Source: Cirrosporium novae-zelandiae
Taxonomy: Eukaryota
Direction of reading: 5' to 3'
DNA length: 64,000 nt
NCBI GenBank assembly: GCA_026023565.1
Contig: JAPETS010000003.1
Location: 1,178,001-1,242,000 of the forward strand
Notes under the pieces: model-generated
Seen by the model: only the letters and a program-made list of their open reading frames with translations
Told to the model about the DNA's origin: nothing
Databases searched by the model: none
Shown: piece after piece, positions 13,327 through 60,000 of the stretch
How positions within the stretch are numbered: position 1 is the stretch's first letter
Layout: each line of letters starts with the position of its first letter
Made by a program: the position numbers and the translations under genes

Positions 13327-15204
13327 CTAAGCCGTCTTCGCTTTGTCCTTTTTAGGCGAACCCTTTTTCCCCGTAGTAGTTGTGATCAATCCCCAGGTAC
13401 ACCATAGATAACATAACCCAAAACCACCAGCCCCTATCAAAACATTCAAAACGACCCATAGGTCGGGCTTTCCTTCTGGTGTCTGAACAAAACCTTCGAG
13501 GACATGCCATGCAACCATCACAATATAGAATCCTAGATGTATGAGTTTCGTCAGAATCCTCATACCTTGCCCCGCCGGCTGGGTGCCAAAATAGGCAGAG
13601 AAAGAAGTAGGAGGTAAGCCCATAAGGTAGGTCCACAACAATAGCAAGACAAAATATGGAACTCTAAGCTCATCACGTTTTAATAGCGGAAACATTGTCC
13701 AGGTTCCTAGGGCATTTGCGAAACCTACCCAGGCCCGCTTCGGTGCATTCAAACCGTGATGGCTGGCCAGGAGGAGGGTCATCGGTAAAAGTGGCAATAA
13801 AACACTCTTTTCGTGGACCTGGAATGAAAAAAGGAAGAAGCCCCAAGCAGTACTAGAGAATGCCCATGGGAGTACCTCCTTACGGGGACAGAAAAGAGTT
13901 ATGAGGAGGGAAGGAGTAATTGACGCGAGAGTTGCTAAAAGCGAATATCGCTGCAACATTGCAACTGGATATCGATGGAGTTTATGAAAAGTGTGGATAG
14001 CACACCAGAAATTGGCCACTTTATCTTCAAAGAGACCACGAGCAAACGGAAAGATTCGATGGATTGATTGGCTCATCTCCAAGATAAGAGGATAAGACCA
14101 GTTATCTTTGGGGATTTCGTATGGTATTGCGTCCAGAAAAGACGGAGCCGAAAAATCGAAGGAAATGCCACGAGATTCGTCATATAGGACACCGAGAATG
14201 AACGGTGCATAGATGATGGCGAATGAAAGCACCGTAATCAGTGAAATCAGAACAAGGCTGAATGGCCTTGGCCTTGGGAAAAGACAACTCCCAAGCAAGT
14301 AAGCGAATATTGCTGGAGCGTAGTATAATGCCATTTGTTTGAAGCCAAGAGCACCCACAAAGAATGCACATGCCCAAAGTCGTCGATCCGCAAATATACT
14401 GGAAAGACATGCAACAATGAGACCAAGCATCACCGTATTATATTGAAAGTGAGCATGGTCAATAAGCATCGTAGCCGGCTGCATGAGAATTGCTACAAGG
14501 GCAATGGTACCCTCCCAGAGGTTAACAGATTGGTTTCTAGCATAACGGCGGAGGAATATGACCACGGATGGAATATAAATAAGATACTCGGAGATGAGGA
14601 CGGTGGCCCGCATGTAAACCTTTAGGTGAGGCGTTTCTATGGCACGGGAGTTATCTAATTCGAACCAGATAGGATCAATTATCGAGCCTCTAAGTATTTA
14701 TTAGTTAGCAAGCAATCCTGTGCAACATATTAAATAGAGAGCGTAATATACATTTTGCCCAGAATCCAGCTATGGTATGCAGTGAGGGGAGGATAGTCTA
14801 GACCCCACCACTCCAAGTCATAAAAATACCACTGTGCCACGGGCAATTTCGTTGTGATCTCCATCCAATGCCTTTGGGCTTCAAAGTCTCCATGCATAGG
14901 CGGCGATTGGAAACCTAGAACTAATTAGCAAGGTCCAAGGAGAAGAGAAAGAGGGTATACCAGAAAATCCCCAAAGACCGACCGCCCACCTGAAAAGCCC
15001 CACTACCATGAGAATGAGAGGTAAAGTCACCCATTGCGAAGTGCTTTTCCTTGCTGGCCATAGGAAGGATACCAAAGGAAAGGCTGGTTGGGGTAAGCTC
15101 GAGGCCGAATGGGCAAAAACCGCTTCATGATTTCCAGTAGATGGCAAGACAGTGCCAATCTTTCTTCGCTTCCTAGGGCGATGGAGGGAAGAAGGTGGAG
15201 GCAT
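13327..15204 (-). CDS. ALG6: Dol-P-Glc:Man9GlcNAc2-PP-Dol alpha-1,3-glucosyltransferase
   Basis: Spliced exons give [64 protein letters not shown] and [11 protein letters not shown]. Confidence 0.95.
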
Positions 15205-15746
15205 TTTTATTTATTTATTACAATTGAATATAAATATGATTGAACTTAAACACTGTTAGCATCTTCAATTTGGAATGAACGACCTGGCTAGAAAGTAAGT
15301 AAAGGGAAAAAGTCCAACCGTTAAGAAGGGTGGGATTTGTGATTAATATCAATCAATATTGGTGATGAAAAGCCAGCTGTTGATTATACTTACTCGAGTA
15401 AGTGGGACCTATGGAGGGACCTGAAGCTTGGATGCCTGGCACCGGAGCTTGGCTTTCTTGAAAGCCGAATGCAACAAATCTAAGGGTTTTAATTACTACT
15501 GTGTATCAAAGAAGCTAGCACTGATACACATAGGTAATTTCTCAACCATTATCAATAACAACGAAACGAATTCAAACAAAAATATATCAATTACAAACAA
15601 CCAAAATGCTAAACAGACTTTTAAAAAGATTCATACCTTCTTAAACCAAATATTCTACAAGTGAAGAATCGAAAAGTACTATTTGGACCTTGCAGTATTG
15701 TGTATTGTAAGCACGGCAGAATTAAACTTCAATGCGACGCTAGGAG

Positions 15747-15795
15747 GCGGTGAGAAAATTTCCCTCCAAGTGCCAAAGCGAAAAAAAAAAGTTTC
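15747..15795 (+). promoter_or_regulatory. PAC/RRPE-like and poly(dA) elements upstream of NSR1
   Basis: GCGGTGAG-AAAATTT at 15747-15761 resembles PAC (GCGATGAG) and RRPE (AAAWTTT), followed by GCG-A10-GTTT. Such motifs are typical of ribosome-biogenesis promoters. Confidence 0.4.
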
Positions 15796-15901
15796 CTAGA
15801 GCTACTCCAGCCATTTCTTTTCCTCTATTTATTCAACATCTGGCTGCTACTCTCTTTTACGAAAGCATCAACCATATTTTTTCTCTTACAGACTTCTGCC
15901 T

Positions 15902-16312
15902 GTGAGACCTCATTATCAACTGTTTCTTTGTGGGGTATTGACTTAACTACTGTGGGCTTTGACTCGAGGATATTCATAGACATTGCTTGTCGTGTCTGTA
16001 TCTAACCTGTGGGCTTGAAGAGCTTACTGTGGGTTGTCCGTCATCAGAGGGATCTTGACTTGAACTTTTGACCGTAGTGTATTACTACTATCGTGAGGTT
16101 TTCCTGTCCGATTTGTGGGATAACACAGAGGGCTTAGAGGGGTCACTGTCCGCTTTTGAGATCTACATAAATTATCAATATCTGTGGGGTAACTACTATC
16201 CCCTTCATCTTCTCATCCCTTTCGAGTTATCACCTAACCGATACCTCAAGCCCCACAGTTATCTTCTCTCAGGCTGGATGAAGAAAAGTTCGCTAACCCA
16301 TCGTTTTCATAG
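15902..16312 (+). other. Putative long 5'-UTR intron of NSR1
   Basis: GTGAGA donor at 15902, GCTAAC branch point 16292-16297 and CATAG acceptor ending 16312, 24 nt before the ATG at 16337. The donor position is inferred. Confidence 0.6.
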
Positions 16313-16336
16313 TGTTACCAATAAAGTTAATTCAAA

Positions 16337-18049
16337 ATGGGAAAGACAAAGGTAGCAAAGGGCAAGTCCAGCCATGGATCCGCCGTTCCTGAGTCTAAGA
16401 AGCATCAAAAGGCCGATGTGAAGGCTGCTGGGGGTATTGTGAAGCCATCTCACTCTGTTAAGACCAAGAGCAAGGAGGTCGCTAAGAAGGTTGCCGAAAA
16501 GGCAGATAAACATGTGAAGAAACATAAGAAGTCCAAGAAAGAGCCAACACCTGAACCTAGCTCCGAGAGCGAGGCTTCAGATGCTAAGATGGGAGATGGT
16601 TCTGCTACTAGTGACAGCTCTTCTGACTCTGAGGTTGAGGTGAAGAAGGTTGCTCCTAAAGCAAACGGCAAGGTAAGTGGAAAAACCAATGGCAAGACCA
16701 ATGGAAAGGCCAAGAAGGAAAGCGAATCTGAATCTTCGGAATCATCTTCATCAGAATCTGAGTCTGAAGTCGAAGCCAAGAAACCAGAGGTGAAAACAAA
16801 TGGAACTGTGAAAGCAAAGAAGGAGGAGTCTTCTGATTCCGATTCCGACTCAGAATCCGAGAAGGAAACAGCTAAGCCCAAGGGAGCTACCAAGAAAGCA
16901 GAGCCCAAGAAGGCTGATGCAAAGAAGGCTGACTCGTCCGACGAAGACTCCAGTGAGTCCGAGGAGTCCGAAGATGAGAAACCAAAGAAGGATACTGCAA
17001 CAAAGTCGGCTAAGAAGGTATGCTCTAAATAGACATTCATCCATCCTTAATCCAAGCTAACTTTGCATCAAGGACTCTGCTTCTTCTGATGAAGATGAGG
17101 ATTCGGACAGCTCCTCTAATAGTGATTCCGATGCCTCAGAATCAGGAAGCGAGAAGGAGGCTGCACCAAAGAAGCGTAAGGCGGAGGAAGCCCCCGAGCC
17201 AACTTCCAAGAAAGCCAAGACCGAGACCGCTGTTGAAGATACTGGAGCAAAGAACTTATTCGTTGGCAATCTCTCATGGAATATTGATGAGGAATGGTTA
17301 GCTCGTGAGTTTGAAGAATTTGGTGAACTTACTGGGACCCGCATCATCACAGACAGGGCCAGTGGCCGATCAAAAGGGTCAGTCACGTGCTTCCGCCGTT
17401 TTAGGGCTTTAACTAACAGGCACTTAGTTTTGGATATGTTGAATTTGCCAACTCTGCTGATGCTGCTAAGGCTCTTGCGGCCAAGAAGGGCACCGATATT
17501 GACGGGCGTCCAGTGAACCTTGACTTCTCTACTCCTAAGCAAGACAATGGTGGGAGAGAACGCACCAATTCTCGTGCTAACCAATTCGGTGATCAAACCA
17601 GTCCCGAGAGTGATACCCTCTTCCTTGGAAATCTATCGTTCGAGGCTACAGAGGATATGGTCAGCGAACAGTTTGGTCAATATGGAAGCGTTGTTGGTAT
17701 TAGGTTGCCTACAGATAGAGAGACCGGCCAACCTAAGGGTTTCGGTTACGTTCAATTCTCGTCGATAGATGAAGCAAAGGAGGCCTTGAACAATTTGAGA
17801 GGAGCTACCATCGGTGGTCGTCCAGTCCGACTTGACTTTTCAACCCCTCGCCAGAACCAAGACGGTGGCGACGGAGGTCATGGTGGTCGTGGAGGTGGAC
17901 GTGGCGGCCGTGGTGGGCGCGGTGGGCGCGGCGGGTTTGGAAGCTTCGGCGGACGAGGCGGCGGCCGCGGTGGAGCTCGTGGTGGCCGTGGAGGCTCTAC
18001 CAACCGTGGAGGCTTTGGTGACTTCAAGGGAAAGAAGATCACCTTTTAG
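16337..18049 (+). CDS. NSR1: Nucleolin homologue (Nsr1/gar2): K/S/E-rich N-terminus, two RRMs, RGG tail; 3 coding exons
   Basis: RRM1 has NLFVGNLSW and RSKG|FGYVEF; RRM2 has LFLGNLSF and PKGFGYVQF; C-terminal RGG repeats end in FKGKKITF. Introns 17018-17072 and ~17378-17428. Confidence 0.95.
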
Positions 18050-20020
18050 ATGTTCAAAACACAGTGAGTTAGTCGAGGTTTGTGCCGTGGAGTCGTTCTC
18101 GCTTGATAATGCTGTAGCATAATGGGAGGAGGCGAGATTTTTCAAGAAAGTCTATGCTATCACCTGCTTGGCTAGTGTATTGGCGTTTGCTACGACGATA
18201 ATGATACGGTCTAACAAAAGTTATTTTCTTGTTTTCCTGTTCAGCTCTAGGCTAACCATTGTATGATACGAGATGAACCATTAAGGGTCTCGAGTTTATC
18301 AGTATTTTCCTCGTTATGAATCAAACGTGCTATCAACTCTACTACTTTTCTAGACTTGTTCTATTGGAATTATACATTAAAACCGCATAACCTCCTTGAT
18401 ATGATGAGTGTTGATGGAATAGATAAAGAGGAATAGCATCTCTTAACGTGAGCTTGATGGGTGGAAGGAGAGTAACTAGGTGGGAGTCACGTGGGAGTTA
18501 ATCATATATTTGTTAACTTAAAGTATTCTGGGGCTTGCCTTCGGTGAGCCTTTCTCTGCGAGTAGATCCTAGGTCGGATTTCCTCGTGCCGATTATGGAG
18601 GAGCTTTCACGTAACAAACTTGAAGTAGATGGATATAAAAATTATATTCAAAGTCTTGACTTATAGTTTAGGTAGATTCAACAATGTAGAACGCTTGTTA
18701 ATGGTTTAGAGTATTGTTTCAGCAATGTTCCAGTACGATATGACTAGATTTTGGTTTCGATAAAAGTATCCACAATTGTAACCTCCGGTAATGCGGTAGA
18801 CGAATAGAAAAGAGCTCAGACAACAAACAGGAAAGCTTGGCTAAAGTAAACGGGAATTAATGGAAGTGTAGATGATTGCGTGAGAGATGGTATCAGCAGA
18901 CAGGCTGACAGGTAGAACAGGATATCAGGCACCATAGGGGGATAATCGGGACCATTATATTGGGTAAATAGAAGAGATACTGGGATGGAATACTTCGAAT
19001 GTAGAAGAAAGTGGATATTTGTATCAGACAAACAAAGGGCAAGAGGATACACCGGCTGTGTCGATGGAGTGACTATGATATAACTGTAGAGTATCAAGTA
19101 CACAGTGACTACGAGACAATCTAGACTTGGCTTAAAACAAGGGAGACTTGGGTTTATTTGGCATTGTTTGGCTACCGATTTTAGGCGGAAGGTACCGATA
19201 AAGTGCCGAGTGAAGCGCTTCAATGGTTGAGGATTGAGGGGGGTGGGGGGCAAGCTCGGGGGGGGCTTCGGTGGGCTGCTGTAGGCTTTGGCGGGTGGGC
19301 GGTTGGTGACAGCTGCGAGGTTCAGACAGTACCTAGGTAGTTAGTCGTTGCGTAATATTAAAACAAGCAAGGAGTCATCATCGTTCATGGTTAGTATTTG
19401 AATTTAATATGAATTTACCCAAGGAGCTCCTCTTGGTTTGGTGGTTTAAGATGACGTTTGACCCCTTTAGTCATTTCACTGATCATCGAGTGGATGTTTT
19501 TGATGATCAACTCATCTGACCCCCAATCCTATCCTTACACTAAAATCTACTCCAACTACAAAATATCCAATCTACCTTTAGGGTACTTTAGACATCCAAA
19601 TTCATCATCGCCATTAATTACTCTCAATCCTCCTCTTTCCTTACCTTTGAAACCTCAAAACCATCCTCGAGGTCTAGTCACAGCTCCGCCGCCTTCCTCT
19701 GATCTTCTCCATCCTTTAGTAGTCAGGTCCCCCAGTTTGCTGCCTGCCAACATATCCTCAAATCAATTCCTCGTTCAAGCTCCCAAAACGACCCACTTCA
19801 ATAATCAATACCCCTCCTGTTGCTGTCTCATTCGCCTTTCTCGCCCGATTTTGCCATATATCGTTTGAAGAGACTGGGATTTATTTCCATTATCTACCCC
19901 TTTATCGCAACCAGAGTAGCTCATCCATAGTTTAACATCATGCAACCAACACCTGGGGCCTATGATCCAACAAGGGAAAACAGATCGCAGAACTTTCATC
20001 AGCGATCACAAGGTCAAAAT

Positions 20021-57060: not shown

Positions 57061-60000
57061 ATGCATAGTCCTCCTGATTCTCCGGCTAGCCATGGATCAT
57101 CCTCTTCTAACTTTTACGGCGCATCAGAGAACAACGATGGAAACCAAGGATTTTCCACAACTACGGATAACGCACCTTGTGGTACAGGACAAGTTTCAAT
57201 TCTAGGAAGAGATAGCATTGGTGATGCCAATCGAAGAACCTCCCTTTCCACGAATGATGCCTATGCTGCAGCCTTTAGTCCAAGTCCTAGGAACACTGAG
57301 ATGGAGATGAGTGAGAGAACCGCAACAGCCTCTCCCGATACAAGTGGAACGAATAAACAGGTTGGTGCCGACAGTTCAGACCAAACAAGAAAGCGCAAAC
57401 GTATTGAGTCGCGTGATGATACATCTTCCCAAAATACGCTCTTGGAAGGCTCGTCGCCAGATGAGGCAAGCTATAGGCAAGCCTTTCCAGGCCATGACCA
57501 GCTTGGTGAGGGACAAGATACTATACAGAAGCGACTCAAGGTTGAACAGCCACTTGAGCGCACATCCTTGATGCAGACTACCCCACATCCGCTTCCGGTG
57601 AACAGATCTGAACTTCCAATGGAGATCTGGCAGTTCATATTTACCTTTGTTCCACCTGTGTTCCTTGGTCGTCTGTTACGTGTCAACCGGGCTTTTAACA
57701 AATGTCTATCGTTGAGGTTGGATGAACAATCCAATCATTCATCTCATTCTTCTGGTGCTCTTAAGCTCCGTGACTCTGAGTCTATTTGGAAAGCTTCCCG
57801 CTCTCTTTGGTGTCCTGGGATGCCCAAACCGCTTTCTCATCTAAAAGAGATCGACATCTGGCGGTTAGTATGTGGGCGAAGTTGCCAATTCTGTGGGAAA
57901 ACCGGGCTTCCCCCGGTCCCTTCTGTTTCTATATCGCCTTGGACGGCAGGTCCTGGTGAGAGTGATGTACGAGTTATCTGGCCTTTTAGTGTCCGCAGCT
58001 GTGGCCCGTGTCTCATGGAACGAGCACAGAAGGTAAGTCATGGGTCCCATTTATTCACGTAGCCAACATTCGAACCTGACTTCATATTAGGATCTTGATG
58101 CCCTGCTTTCCCCGACCACCCCTTCTTTTCTTCTCCCAGCCTTGCCTTTCGCCTTAATAACACCAGCCATGCATGTCGTCTCTCCAGAAACAATCCGCAG
58201 CTCAGATACACCGTCGGACGTGGTCATGACAAAATATTACTTAAAAGAACACATCGATGATGTTAAGAAGGAGTTGGAAGAGGTCAAGGGTATGGGTACT
58301 GGAACAGCTGAAGAATTTATGAAGGGGTTAGAGCAGAGGGGAAAAGACAAGATGACTGATGCTGCTCGCTGGGAACAATGGGAATCTAATGGTGGTTTAC
58401 GTACTATCAATTCTAGGCAAAATGCCAAACGCCCTGCTGGAGGTTCATTAAGTATAAAGTCAGCTGCAAGCATGCCTACGGATGATCGCTCAGGTCAATC
58501 AACTCCAGCTTCTAGTGACCCCTTTGTCGGGAGAATGACTCAAGCCGGAAGTCCTACTGGCAGTCAGGGATACACAGGGTCCTCCGCCCCTAGCCAAAGC
58601 AATGGTATGTATAATGTTCATTTGATACAATATAGCCCAGAACCCTCGGTTACTGATTCTTAATATTAGGATTCGGTCTCCCTCCCCGTCCTTCAAATTC
58701 GCCCACCCAGCCAGCCTTTCAACATCAGTCTCATAGCTCCTTCCAACAACGCTCTGAACGGACTCTTCGCGATGTCAATGAGGCAAAAGCCAACCGCAGA
58801 GCAGAAATCGAGAGAAGGTGTATGGAGCTCGACCCTCCGCTTGCACCTAGCCTGCTTAACCATATGGAGTCGTTTCAGGCTGCAATGTTGATCGGGACAC
58901 CCCTCACTGACTCGGCGTGGGAGGTATTGAAACCTAGGCTATTGGCCCAAAGGGAGGTAGCTGAACGTCGCGAGAATGAACGTCTTTTACAAACTCAACT
59001 TCTCCAAGCTAAGACCGAAGAACGACGCCAACAAGAAGCTCAAATCAAAGAAGCCAAGGAAGCATTGGACCGAGAGTGGGAGGAAATGCAAAAACCTGTT
59101 CGAGATCGTATTGCCCTTTATGCTGATGAAATCATTCGTGACCAGTGGCAAGAAGGCAAGCTTGTTACAAAAGAAACAAGTCCCAAATTTGCAGCAGATG
59201 TATTAATGTATGTTCGCCAAAAATTCTATACTGACGTGGCCCGCGAGGGTTCTCAGGCTCAGTCGACTGGAGACTCGGTGCATGATGAAATTCTTTCTGG
59301 ACATCCAGTCCGGAAGCTGGTATTAGAAAACATGAAATGGATCTTTGATACCAAAATCAAGCCCATAACAGAGCAATTCCAGAAGGAACTTTTCCTTTGC
59401 AACGGTTGTGAGAATATCATCAAGTTCTATGGGTTTGAGGGAGTTGTCCAGCATTATGCCGCAAAGCATACAAACATCCTAAGTCTAGGTAGTGTTGTTG
59501 TCCATTGGCGCGCTGAATGGCCGGAAGTTACTCCATTTCATCCCAATCCCAGCGCGGCTAAGGCGATGTTTTATAGGGTTCCAACTCCTGCCCAAGGCCA
59601 AGCTAGCTATCCCCTTCAGCCTCCGGCTCCTTATGGTGGTTATGGACGTGGACCTGAATCTGGTCCGTCACTCATGCATCCTGGGCCATCGGGGTATCCA
59701 CCTAGCCAGAATTCCTTCAATGGTCCACCCTATAACAATATGTTTCCGCGGCAGTCAGCATCATATGAACCGCCAAGTCCACTCATGTACCAAAGCCCAA
59801 TCCCTTCCTACAATCAGCTCCCAACAAACCCATACCCACTTCAAGGGACCCAAAATTCTTATGGATACCCAGGCCCTACTCCGGGATTCAATGGACCAAA
59901 CAATAATTATGATGCCTATCGAGCGCCGCCGCCGCAGCATCCTGTATGGGGTTCACCATATCCTGCTCATTATCAATTACCTGTTGCTCCCCAGCATGGA

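Follow-up and report, generated by a model that had tools for sequence, protein, structure and literature searches.

Poly(A)-binding protein (PABP) has an A-rich autoregulatory sequence in the 5′ untranslated region (UTR) of its own mRNA, and the Mmi1 protein of Schizosaccharomyces pombe works through clusters of a hexamer, the determinant of selective removal (DSR), on meiotic transcripts. The NRD1 gene of Saccharomyces cerevisiae is autoregulated by clusters of Nrd1/Nab3 sites via premature termination (Arigo et al., 2006, as cited in PMC12810187). Motifs in ribosomal-protein pre-mRNAs (RPL30 and others) are described, in the passages of PMC8216456 that treat them, as feedback loops that often operate via splicing. 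Passages of PMC11789052 report the RGG motif as essential for G-quadruplex binding and place nucleolin among the proteins concerned; yeast Nsr1 is stated to bind G-quadruplex (G4) DNA (in part of PMC7768239), and G-quadruplex binding by Nsr1/nucleolin is reported in parts of PMC7768239 and PMC5504353. Here, we describe an array of short G-rich words beside NSR1, the gene of the nucleolin-type protein Nsr1, in a 64,000-nucleotide stretch of Cirrosporium novae-zelandiae (GenBank assembly GCA_026023565.1, contig JAPETS010000003.1, positions 1,178,001–1,242,000 of the forward strand; hereafter the window) and in its relatives. Nucleolin/Nsr1 is a central and abundant ribosome-assembly factor, and the setting of its level is not well understood.

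The array resembles the PABP leader in that several copies of what may be the protein's preferred word lie in its own mRNA leader, where occupancy would lower output; it differs in the word (GWGGGCUU), in having only a candidate binder and in that it can also be found in the 3′ UTR or flanked by splice sites. With the DSRs it has in common a position-independent cluster of short words (in an intron, a 5′ region or a 3′ region) that would recruit a protein deciding the fate of the transcript, but DSRs mark many genes and the NSR1 array marks one. NRD1, as outlined in PMC12810187, likewise has a cluster of short words in the 5′ part of the transcript of an RNA-binding protein, read co-transcriptionally; its words are others, and full-length NSR1 contigs with a spliced coding sequence keep the array and give no evidence for termination. 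Elements of the RPL30 type are also cis elements of a ribosome-biogenesis factor gene, located in an intron or leader and conserved across fungi, but in the account of PMC8216456 they are single structured mimics of rRNA sites, whereas in NSR1 one word is repeated many times as an array, accompanied by small hairpins only. Autogenous binding of RNA G-quadruplexes by RGG proteins (as treated in parts of PMC11789052), together with the Nsr1/nucleolin quadruplex binding cited above, provides a precedent for G-tract-rich RNA in the mRNA of an RGG protein; the NSR1 tracts differ in being noncoding, mostly too far apart for canonical quadruplexes and conserved in their flanks.

No description of an NSR1-linked array was found in full-text literature searches. 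Neither NSR1 nor nucleolin is named in the main texts of two screens for structured RNAs in fungi (PMC5640933 and PMC8216456) and of an Aspergillus fumigatus UTR map (PMC12810187); their supplements could list the region.

The array and its conservation

In the NSR1 product, an acidic, Ser-rich N-terminal region is followed by two RRMs (Pfam RRM_1, 1.3e-28) and then by an RGG tail. A search at E ≤ 1e-20 gave 974 homologues, which bore the names nucleolin or Nsr1; the best of these came from Pezizomycotina, with 60–67% identity across the RRM part. Upstream of the coding sequence, the 411 nt from the candidate donor to the distal candidate acceptor (15902–16312) contain the word N-G-[T/A]-G-G-G nine times on the sense strand and once on the antisense strand, about 0.9 being expected per strand; the repeats of the window are thus not a product of chance. 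Elsewhere in the window the same word was counted 127 times on the plus strand and 149 times on the minus strand in 60.8 kb. Six of the 20 plus-strand copies of TGTGGG in the window lie in the array (Poisson P of at least six within 260 nt, about 5e-11 per window).

For comparison, 80 loci of NSR1 relatives were taken from metagenome contigs and each was turned so that the gene lay on the plus strand; their taxon labels are best-hit hints only. An exact 26-mer from the start of the NSR1 coding sequence had no match among the metagenome contigs. Across these loci, arrays of 5–12 copies of the GUGGGCUU-type word Y-H-G-W-G-G-G-C-U-U adjoin NSR1 on the sense strand only. After the removal of six near-duplicate loci, at least five copies per 400 nt were present on the sense strand in 33–34 of 74 loci and on the antisense strand in one, so that conservation of the repeats in NSR1 orthologues, which the earlier reading made from the sequence alone (the sequence-only reading) had put forward for checking, is borne out. 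In 36,058 nt of NSR1 flanks, from loci with a mapped start and stop codon, NGWGGGCTT was found 86 times in sense and once in antisense orientation; farther from the gene, 87,733 nt of background DNA had two and three, respectively. This recurrence beside NSR1 is the main new result of the comparison.

The arrays precede the ATG in Dothideomycete-, Eurotiomycete-, Lecanoromycete- and Candelina-like loci and in the window (5′ type). In Leotiomycete-like loci and a few more distant ones they follow directly after the stop codon (3′ type); in one locus of this type, L012, 261 residues of the C-terminal RRM region match a named protein of Rhexocercosporidium with 100% identity. No locus has both. 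The logo Y-H-G-[U/A]-G-G-G-C-U-U was the same whether derived from 231 sites of 5′ arrays or from 93 sites of 3′ arrays, and the words are spaced by a median of 26 nt. The positions around GGG are conserved (never G at −1, C at +5 and U at +6/+7). A single GCCGCAC box, always on the sense strand, accompanies eight of 23 5′ arrays and seven of ten 3′ arrays and is located 100–250 nt from the acceptor or, in the 3′ arrays, just past the stop codon. Loci without an array were mostly short contigs missing the relevant flank or distant relatives (Lipomyces-like and further).

The best collinear similarity between the window and the relatives is the block at 16028–16064, and the TGTCCG word at 16147 occupies the place of the relatives' GCCGCACA box (window GAGGGGTCACTGTCCGCTTTTGAG, L001 GAGGGCTCGCCGCACAATTTTGAC). 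The relatedness of the window array to the others is read from word, strand, copy number, gene linkage and the short local similarity of this block to L004 and L018. A palindromic word, GAAAATTTC, marks the promoter 5′ of the repeats and resembles the ribosomal RNA processing element (RRPE) motif of ribosome-biogenesis promoters. A similar word is located 41–206 nt 5′ of the first repeat in nine of 16 assessable 5′-type loci, the window included (114–175 nt in seven of the nine).

Two further elements were seen within the arrays of relatives. 3′-type arrays (L010, L012, L024, L039, L073 and L078) end in a conserved word resembling a 5′ splice site, GGTGAGTA or GGTAAGT, followed by (A)TACCC; it lies about 430–620 nt past the stop codon, mRNA-like contigs extend 50–135 nt beyond it, and it might serve in U1 binding, in 3′-end control or as part of a real 3′ UTR intron. 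Dothideomycete-like loci (L013, L017, L019, L028, L029, L031, L032, L034, L035, L059, L063, L079 and L080) carry, once per array, an invariant TGTGGGAACAC in the loop of a small hairpin (CUUC..GGC/GCC..GAAG, with one compensatory change); the window does not have it.

Evidence for action as RNA

Short contigs of about 2 kb were compared with genomic relatives. In five of six pairs (L038/L044, L032/L063, L080/L079, L028/L013 and L039/L010) the short contig was without intron-sized stretches present in the coding region of its relative, mostly of the form GT..branch..AG, and the sixth pair (L059/L079) had no gap of at least 30 nt. One of the removed stretches is at KG|FGYVEF, the position of the window intron 17378–17427. 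As they lack the coding introns, the short contigs probably derive from spliced mRNA; the 3′ ends of L032, L059 and L080 are at about the same place. These contigs keep the whole array, either in the 5′ leader (L028, L032, L038 and L080) or in the 3′ UTR (L039). A transcription start downstream of the repeats, named in the sequence-only reading as an objection to it, was not the case in the relatives, the transcripts of which start 5′ of the repeats.

Among the 64 trinucleotides, ATG is the most depleted in the 23 5′ arrays (10,909 nt), with 50 copies against 154.7 expected from a first-order model (observed/expected 0.32). No such depletion is seen for its complement CAT (230 copies), and in the ten 3′ arrays ATG is near expectation (observed/expected 0.82). 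The window follows the same pattern. The ATGs at 15732 and 16278 leave a gap of 546 nt, the greatest of all plus-strand gaps in the 64 kb, and the absence of ATG across the 376 nt from 15902 to 16277 was reproduced in 0.23% of first-order Markov simulations. Such avoidance appears to show that the region is scanned by ribosomes and, together with the presence of the array in spliced contigs, points to an RNA-level element within a scanned leader and not merely a discarded intron.

Some of the structure in the arrays is also conserved. A hairpin in the core of the 5′ arrays changes from CCGC/GCGG to CUGC/GCAG or UCGC/GCGA with compensation, and in the 3′ type a hairpin (alignment columns 175–200) and a long stem (columns 398–467) show several double changes.

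Intron or retained leader

In the window, the donor GTGAGA at 15902 and the distal GCTAAC/TAG set ending at 16312 define a plausible intron of 411 nt with donor, branch site and acceptor all present. The loci most similar to the window, L001 (GTACGT), L004 (GTATGT) and L018 (GTACGG), have donors in a similar place 5′ of the array. Consensus donors are also found between the array and the acceptor, in L004, L018, L020, L043 and L052; with these in use, the array would stay in exon 1 and splicing would take out no more than a short intron of the conventional kind. A CTRAY branch site and a YAG within 60 nt of the ATG are present in 21 of 23 5′-type loci. Upstream ATGs (uATGs) of the relatives, where present, are often located in the last 40–150 nt before the start codon, where several loci have a short intron, and the window uATG at −59 falls in this zone.

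The label 'intron' for the window region is hence uncertain. The avoidance of ATG and the retention of the array in the spliced contigs of relatives argue against its constitutive removal; considered with the placement of uATGs and donors, they suggest that the array belongs, in many cases at least, to the scanned mRNA leader. Annotators should thus bear in mind that what is called the long 'first intron' in fungal NSR1 genes may be a leader that is retained and translated.

In L028, L032, L059, L063, L079 and L080, ATACTGATAC-N4-GTAGATCTAG is strongly conserved 20–45 nt before the ATG. It has the look of a branch site with an acceptor and is still present in the spliced mRNA-like contigs; no good donor was found upstream of it.

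Proposed function and alternatives

The array is conserved, restricted to the sense strand, linked to NSR1 and present in mRNA-like contigs from which the coding introns have been removed, and ATG is avoided where it precedes the start codon. Since it follows a single RNA-binding-protein gene at either end of the transcript, the usual signature of self-regulation, and since it marks one gene, unlike the DSRs, self-regulation is the leading idea. We consider it somewhat more probable than its negation that 15929–16192 is the window's copy of a conserved RNA-level array tied in cis to the NSR1 transcripts of filamentous ascomycetes and, jointly with this, that the array serves as a multivalent platform on which an RNA-binding protein docks, Nsr1 itself being the likeliest candidate, with negative feedback as the result. 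Which protein binds, in which direction it acts and at which step are what we infer here from the comparison of sequences. Nsr1 would bind the words through its two RRMs and its RGG tail (a word of 9–10 nt would, in our judgement, suit two RRMs), and surplus free Nsr1 would load onto its own mRNA or pre-mRNA and lower the output. In the window, splicing out of the array between 15902 and 16312 would give a short leader and its retention a long ATG-free leader that could be loaded with protein; occupancy could bear on the choice between the two, on how well the retaining form is translated or how stable it is, or on both. The autoregulatory, docking-type repeats of the sequence-only reading are to this extent upheld, as they are conserved, NSR1-linked and confined to the sense strand, which fits protein docking; the particular parts of the switch that it built on them are not general, as set out below.

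A more specific version, which we consider less probable than not, is that the array mimics the sites of Nsr1 on pre-rRNA and acts as a homeostat. Nsr1 not absorbed by nucleolar pre-rRNA would coat the approximately ten words on its own transcript and divert it, and the same module would have moved between the ends of the gene during the radiation of the filamentous ascomycetes. In fungi with the 5′ type the effect might be on the choice between donors flanking the array or on scanning of the long ATG-free leader, which would be blocked; in those with the 3′ type, where the conserved GGUGAGUA word is adjacent, it might be on stability or on the formation of 3′ ends. Attachment of the array to one gene across several fungal classes offers a candidate recognition sequence and a candidate feedback circuit, and the placement of one module in the 5′ leader or the 3′ UTR is a natural experiment.

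Several observations weigh against a conserved docking platform for Nsr1. The window copy is weak, the full consensus GWGGGCTT being matched by three of its nine words (15951, 16008 and 16127) and the GCCGCAC box being missing. Two profile hidden Markov models of 5′-type arrays had no match to the window region, and the 3′-type profile (nhmmer) matched in the window only at 16006–16062 (E = 0.03) and 15933–15968 (E = 0.24). The latter profile had no match at E ≤ 1e-3 among the 5′-type loci, so that common descent of the two types is not shown by alignment, and the similarity of the arrays extends only to their words and their architecture. In L006, 800 nt were without a 5′ array, and the Lipomyces-like and other distant loci likewise have none. 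Splice-site architecture differs between lineages, Pleosporales-like loci having no good donor either 5′ of the array or between array and acceptor, and a single mechanism may therefore not hold everywhere. The structural evidence is modest: few pairs of the 5′ core covary (seven of 33, in ten sequences), the 411-nt region of the window folds with an ordinary energy no better than that of shuffled sequences (z = 0.38), and the element is kept mainly as words. The binder could also be a protein other than Nsr1.

The GGG tracts could instead work as RNA G-quadruplexes read by the RGG tail, with the exact word secondary. The excess of GGG tracts (about 8–16 per array in the relatives, compared with 0–5 CCC tracts) and the known affinity of nucleolin and Nsr1 for quadruplexes, as stated in the parts of PMC11789052, PMC7768239 and PMC5504353 referred to above, speak for this. 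However, four tracts with loops of up to 7 nt occur in merely three of 23 5′ arrays and one of ten 3′ arrays, and allowing loops of up to 12 nt raises this to eight of 23 and two of ten, with none in the window. A bare quadruplex would not require the conserved flanks of GGG, so we regard this account as rather unlikely; because canonical quadruplexes are not general and the flanks are conserved, sequence-specific recognition seems to be favoured. The clustering of the repeats near a promoter with an RRPE-like word would also suit a DNA-level element, with transcription-factor sites making up an enhancer, within the intron or downstream, for a ribosome-biogenesis gene. This is contradicted by the nearly absolute strand bias (86 to 1), by the arrays past the stop codon in Leotiomycete-like loci and by the avoidance of ATG solely where the array precedes the start codon; the hairpins with compensatory changes speak against it as well, and we rate it as highly improbable. 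A hosted noncoding RNA, either a small nucleolar RNA (snoRNA) or a stable RNA derived from the intron or UTR, with NSR1 merely the host gene, has to be weighed as well. Vertebrate nucleolin introns host snoRNAs, intron-like regions and 3′ UTRs are places where hosted RNAs occur, small hairpins are conserved and the GGTGAGTA or GGTAAGT word closes the 3′-type element. Against this, Rfam gave only chance-level hits at E ≤ 10 in 15400–18400 (sR39 at 16272–16306, at 15 bits, the gathering score being 50) and nothing relevant at E ≤ 1 in seven relatives, and neither the C box TGATGA nor the D box CTGA is present on the plus strand of 15902–16312. For the H/ACA class, ACA and ANANNA words exist, and no conserved two-hairpin frame was found, no systematic H/ACA scan having been made. 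An element of 300–500 nt that aligns poorly and consists of one repeated word is unlike guide RNAs, and both the ATG avoidance and the spliced mRNA-like contigs that contain the array point to a function within the mRNA. A hosted snoRNA, another objection raised in the sequence-only reading, is thus unlikely, and a hosted RNA of any kind is improbable.

The sequence-only reading had itself proposed a switch between two acceptors. Pairing of the repeats with their complement would hide the proximal acceptor (CAG ending at 16258 or 16272); a protein on the repeats would free it, and the uATG at 16278 and an inhibitory upstream open reading frame (uORF) would enter the mRNA. All of the pieces exist where they had been placed (repeats, complement, both acceptor sets, donor, sole ATG and 25-codon uORF), apart from the NSR1 start codon, which is 16337–16339 and not 16338. 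The uORF crosses the main start codon in a different frame, and the complement at 16246–16261 can pair with several repeats (85–100% over 8–14 nt). The GCCGCAC box is an imperfect complement that is often present once in relatives, and RNAalifold pairs it with a UGUGGGC word in the 3′ type. As conserved parts, these pieces did not hold up. Only in the window does a complement overlie the acceptor: the flanks of the relatives contain one perfect complement in 36 kb, and their GCCGCAC box is away from the acceptor in 5′ arrays and past the stop codon in 3′ arrays. In L001, L004 and L018, the nearest relatives, there is only one acceptor and one branch site, with no uATG nearby. A uATG is missing altogether in seven of 23 arrays (L001, L018, L019, L028, L038, L044 and L052) and is in other places in the rest. 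All pairs between box and repeats are invariant, which leaves the pairing unproven, the fold energy is the ordinary one given above, and CTRAY words are frequent, with three in the window intron. The switch may operate in this species, which we think quite improbable.

Other features of the locus

The coordinates of the features in and around the NSR1 leader are given in Table 1.

Table 1. Features of the NSR1 locus, in positions counted from the first nucleotide of the window.
Feature	Position	Strand	Remarks
NSR1/gar2-type nucleolin gene	16337–18049	+	Exons 16337–17017, 17073–17377 and 17428–18049
Palindromic word GAAAATTTC	15754–15762	.	Promoter mark 5′ of the repeats
ATG-free leader	15735–16277	+	Longest plus-strand ATG-free stretch in the window
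GTGAGA donor (candidate)	15902–15907	+	No other consensus-like 5′ splice site (G at +5) lies close to the array; 27 nt 5′ of the first repeat
Array of nine N-G-[T/A]-G-G-G words	15929–16192	+	Starts 15929, 15951, 16008, 16028, 16046, 16114, 16127, 16136 and 16183; TGTGGG at 15929, 15951, 16008, 16028, 16114 and 16183
TGTGGGTTGTCCG...TCTTGACTTGA block	16028–16064	+	Local similarity to L004 and L018 (GAGGTTGTCCGAGAATTGTGACTTGAG)
Three TGTCCG words	16035–16152	+	Starts 16035, 16105 and 16147
Three AGAGGG words	16046, 16127 and 16136	+	
Proximal acceptor set (candidate sites)	16233–16272	+	Branch-like CCTAAC 16233–16238; CAG ending at 16258 and 16272
Sole reverse complement of the repeat, TCAAGCCCCACAGTTA	16246–16261	+	Read as TCAAGCCCCACAGT(TA); overlaps CAG 16256–16258
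uATG and 25-codon uORF	16278–16355	+	Only ATG in 15902–16312; T at −3, a weak context; runs across the NSR1 start in another frame
Distal acceptor set	16291–16312	+	Branch GCTAAC 16291–16296; 3′ splice site TAG 16310–16312, 24 nt before the ATG

Relatives share the position of the second NSR1 coding intron (17378–17427), at KG|FGYVEF. Within this intron, TTAGGGCTT at 17401–17409 is similar to the array word, with TAGGG in place of GWGGG. A pair of TGTGGG words at 57871 and 57892 was considered and set aside as unrelated, as it lies within coding sequence (Cys-Gly codons).

The divergent upstream neighbour is a gene for a glucosyltransferase of the ALG6/ALG8 family (Pfam 6e-91) on the minus strand at 13327–15210, about 700 nt from the NSR1 leader. 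Between the two genes, 15775–15814, in the presumed first exon or promoter-proximal region, forms a 40-nt direct repeat with 16336–16375, in the first NSR1 codons; the copies are 70% identical and share their final 9 nt (TCCAGCCAT) exactly, which may be due to chance. Downstream, a consensus donor GTGAGT 15 nt past the NSR1 stop codon and a TAG 54 nt further delimit a possible small 3′ UTR intron (18064–18117), the branch site of which is poor (CTTGAT).

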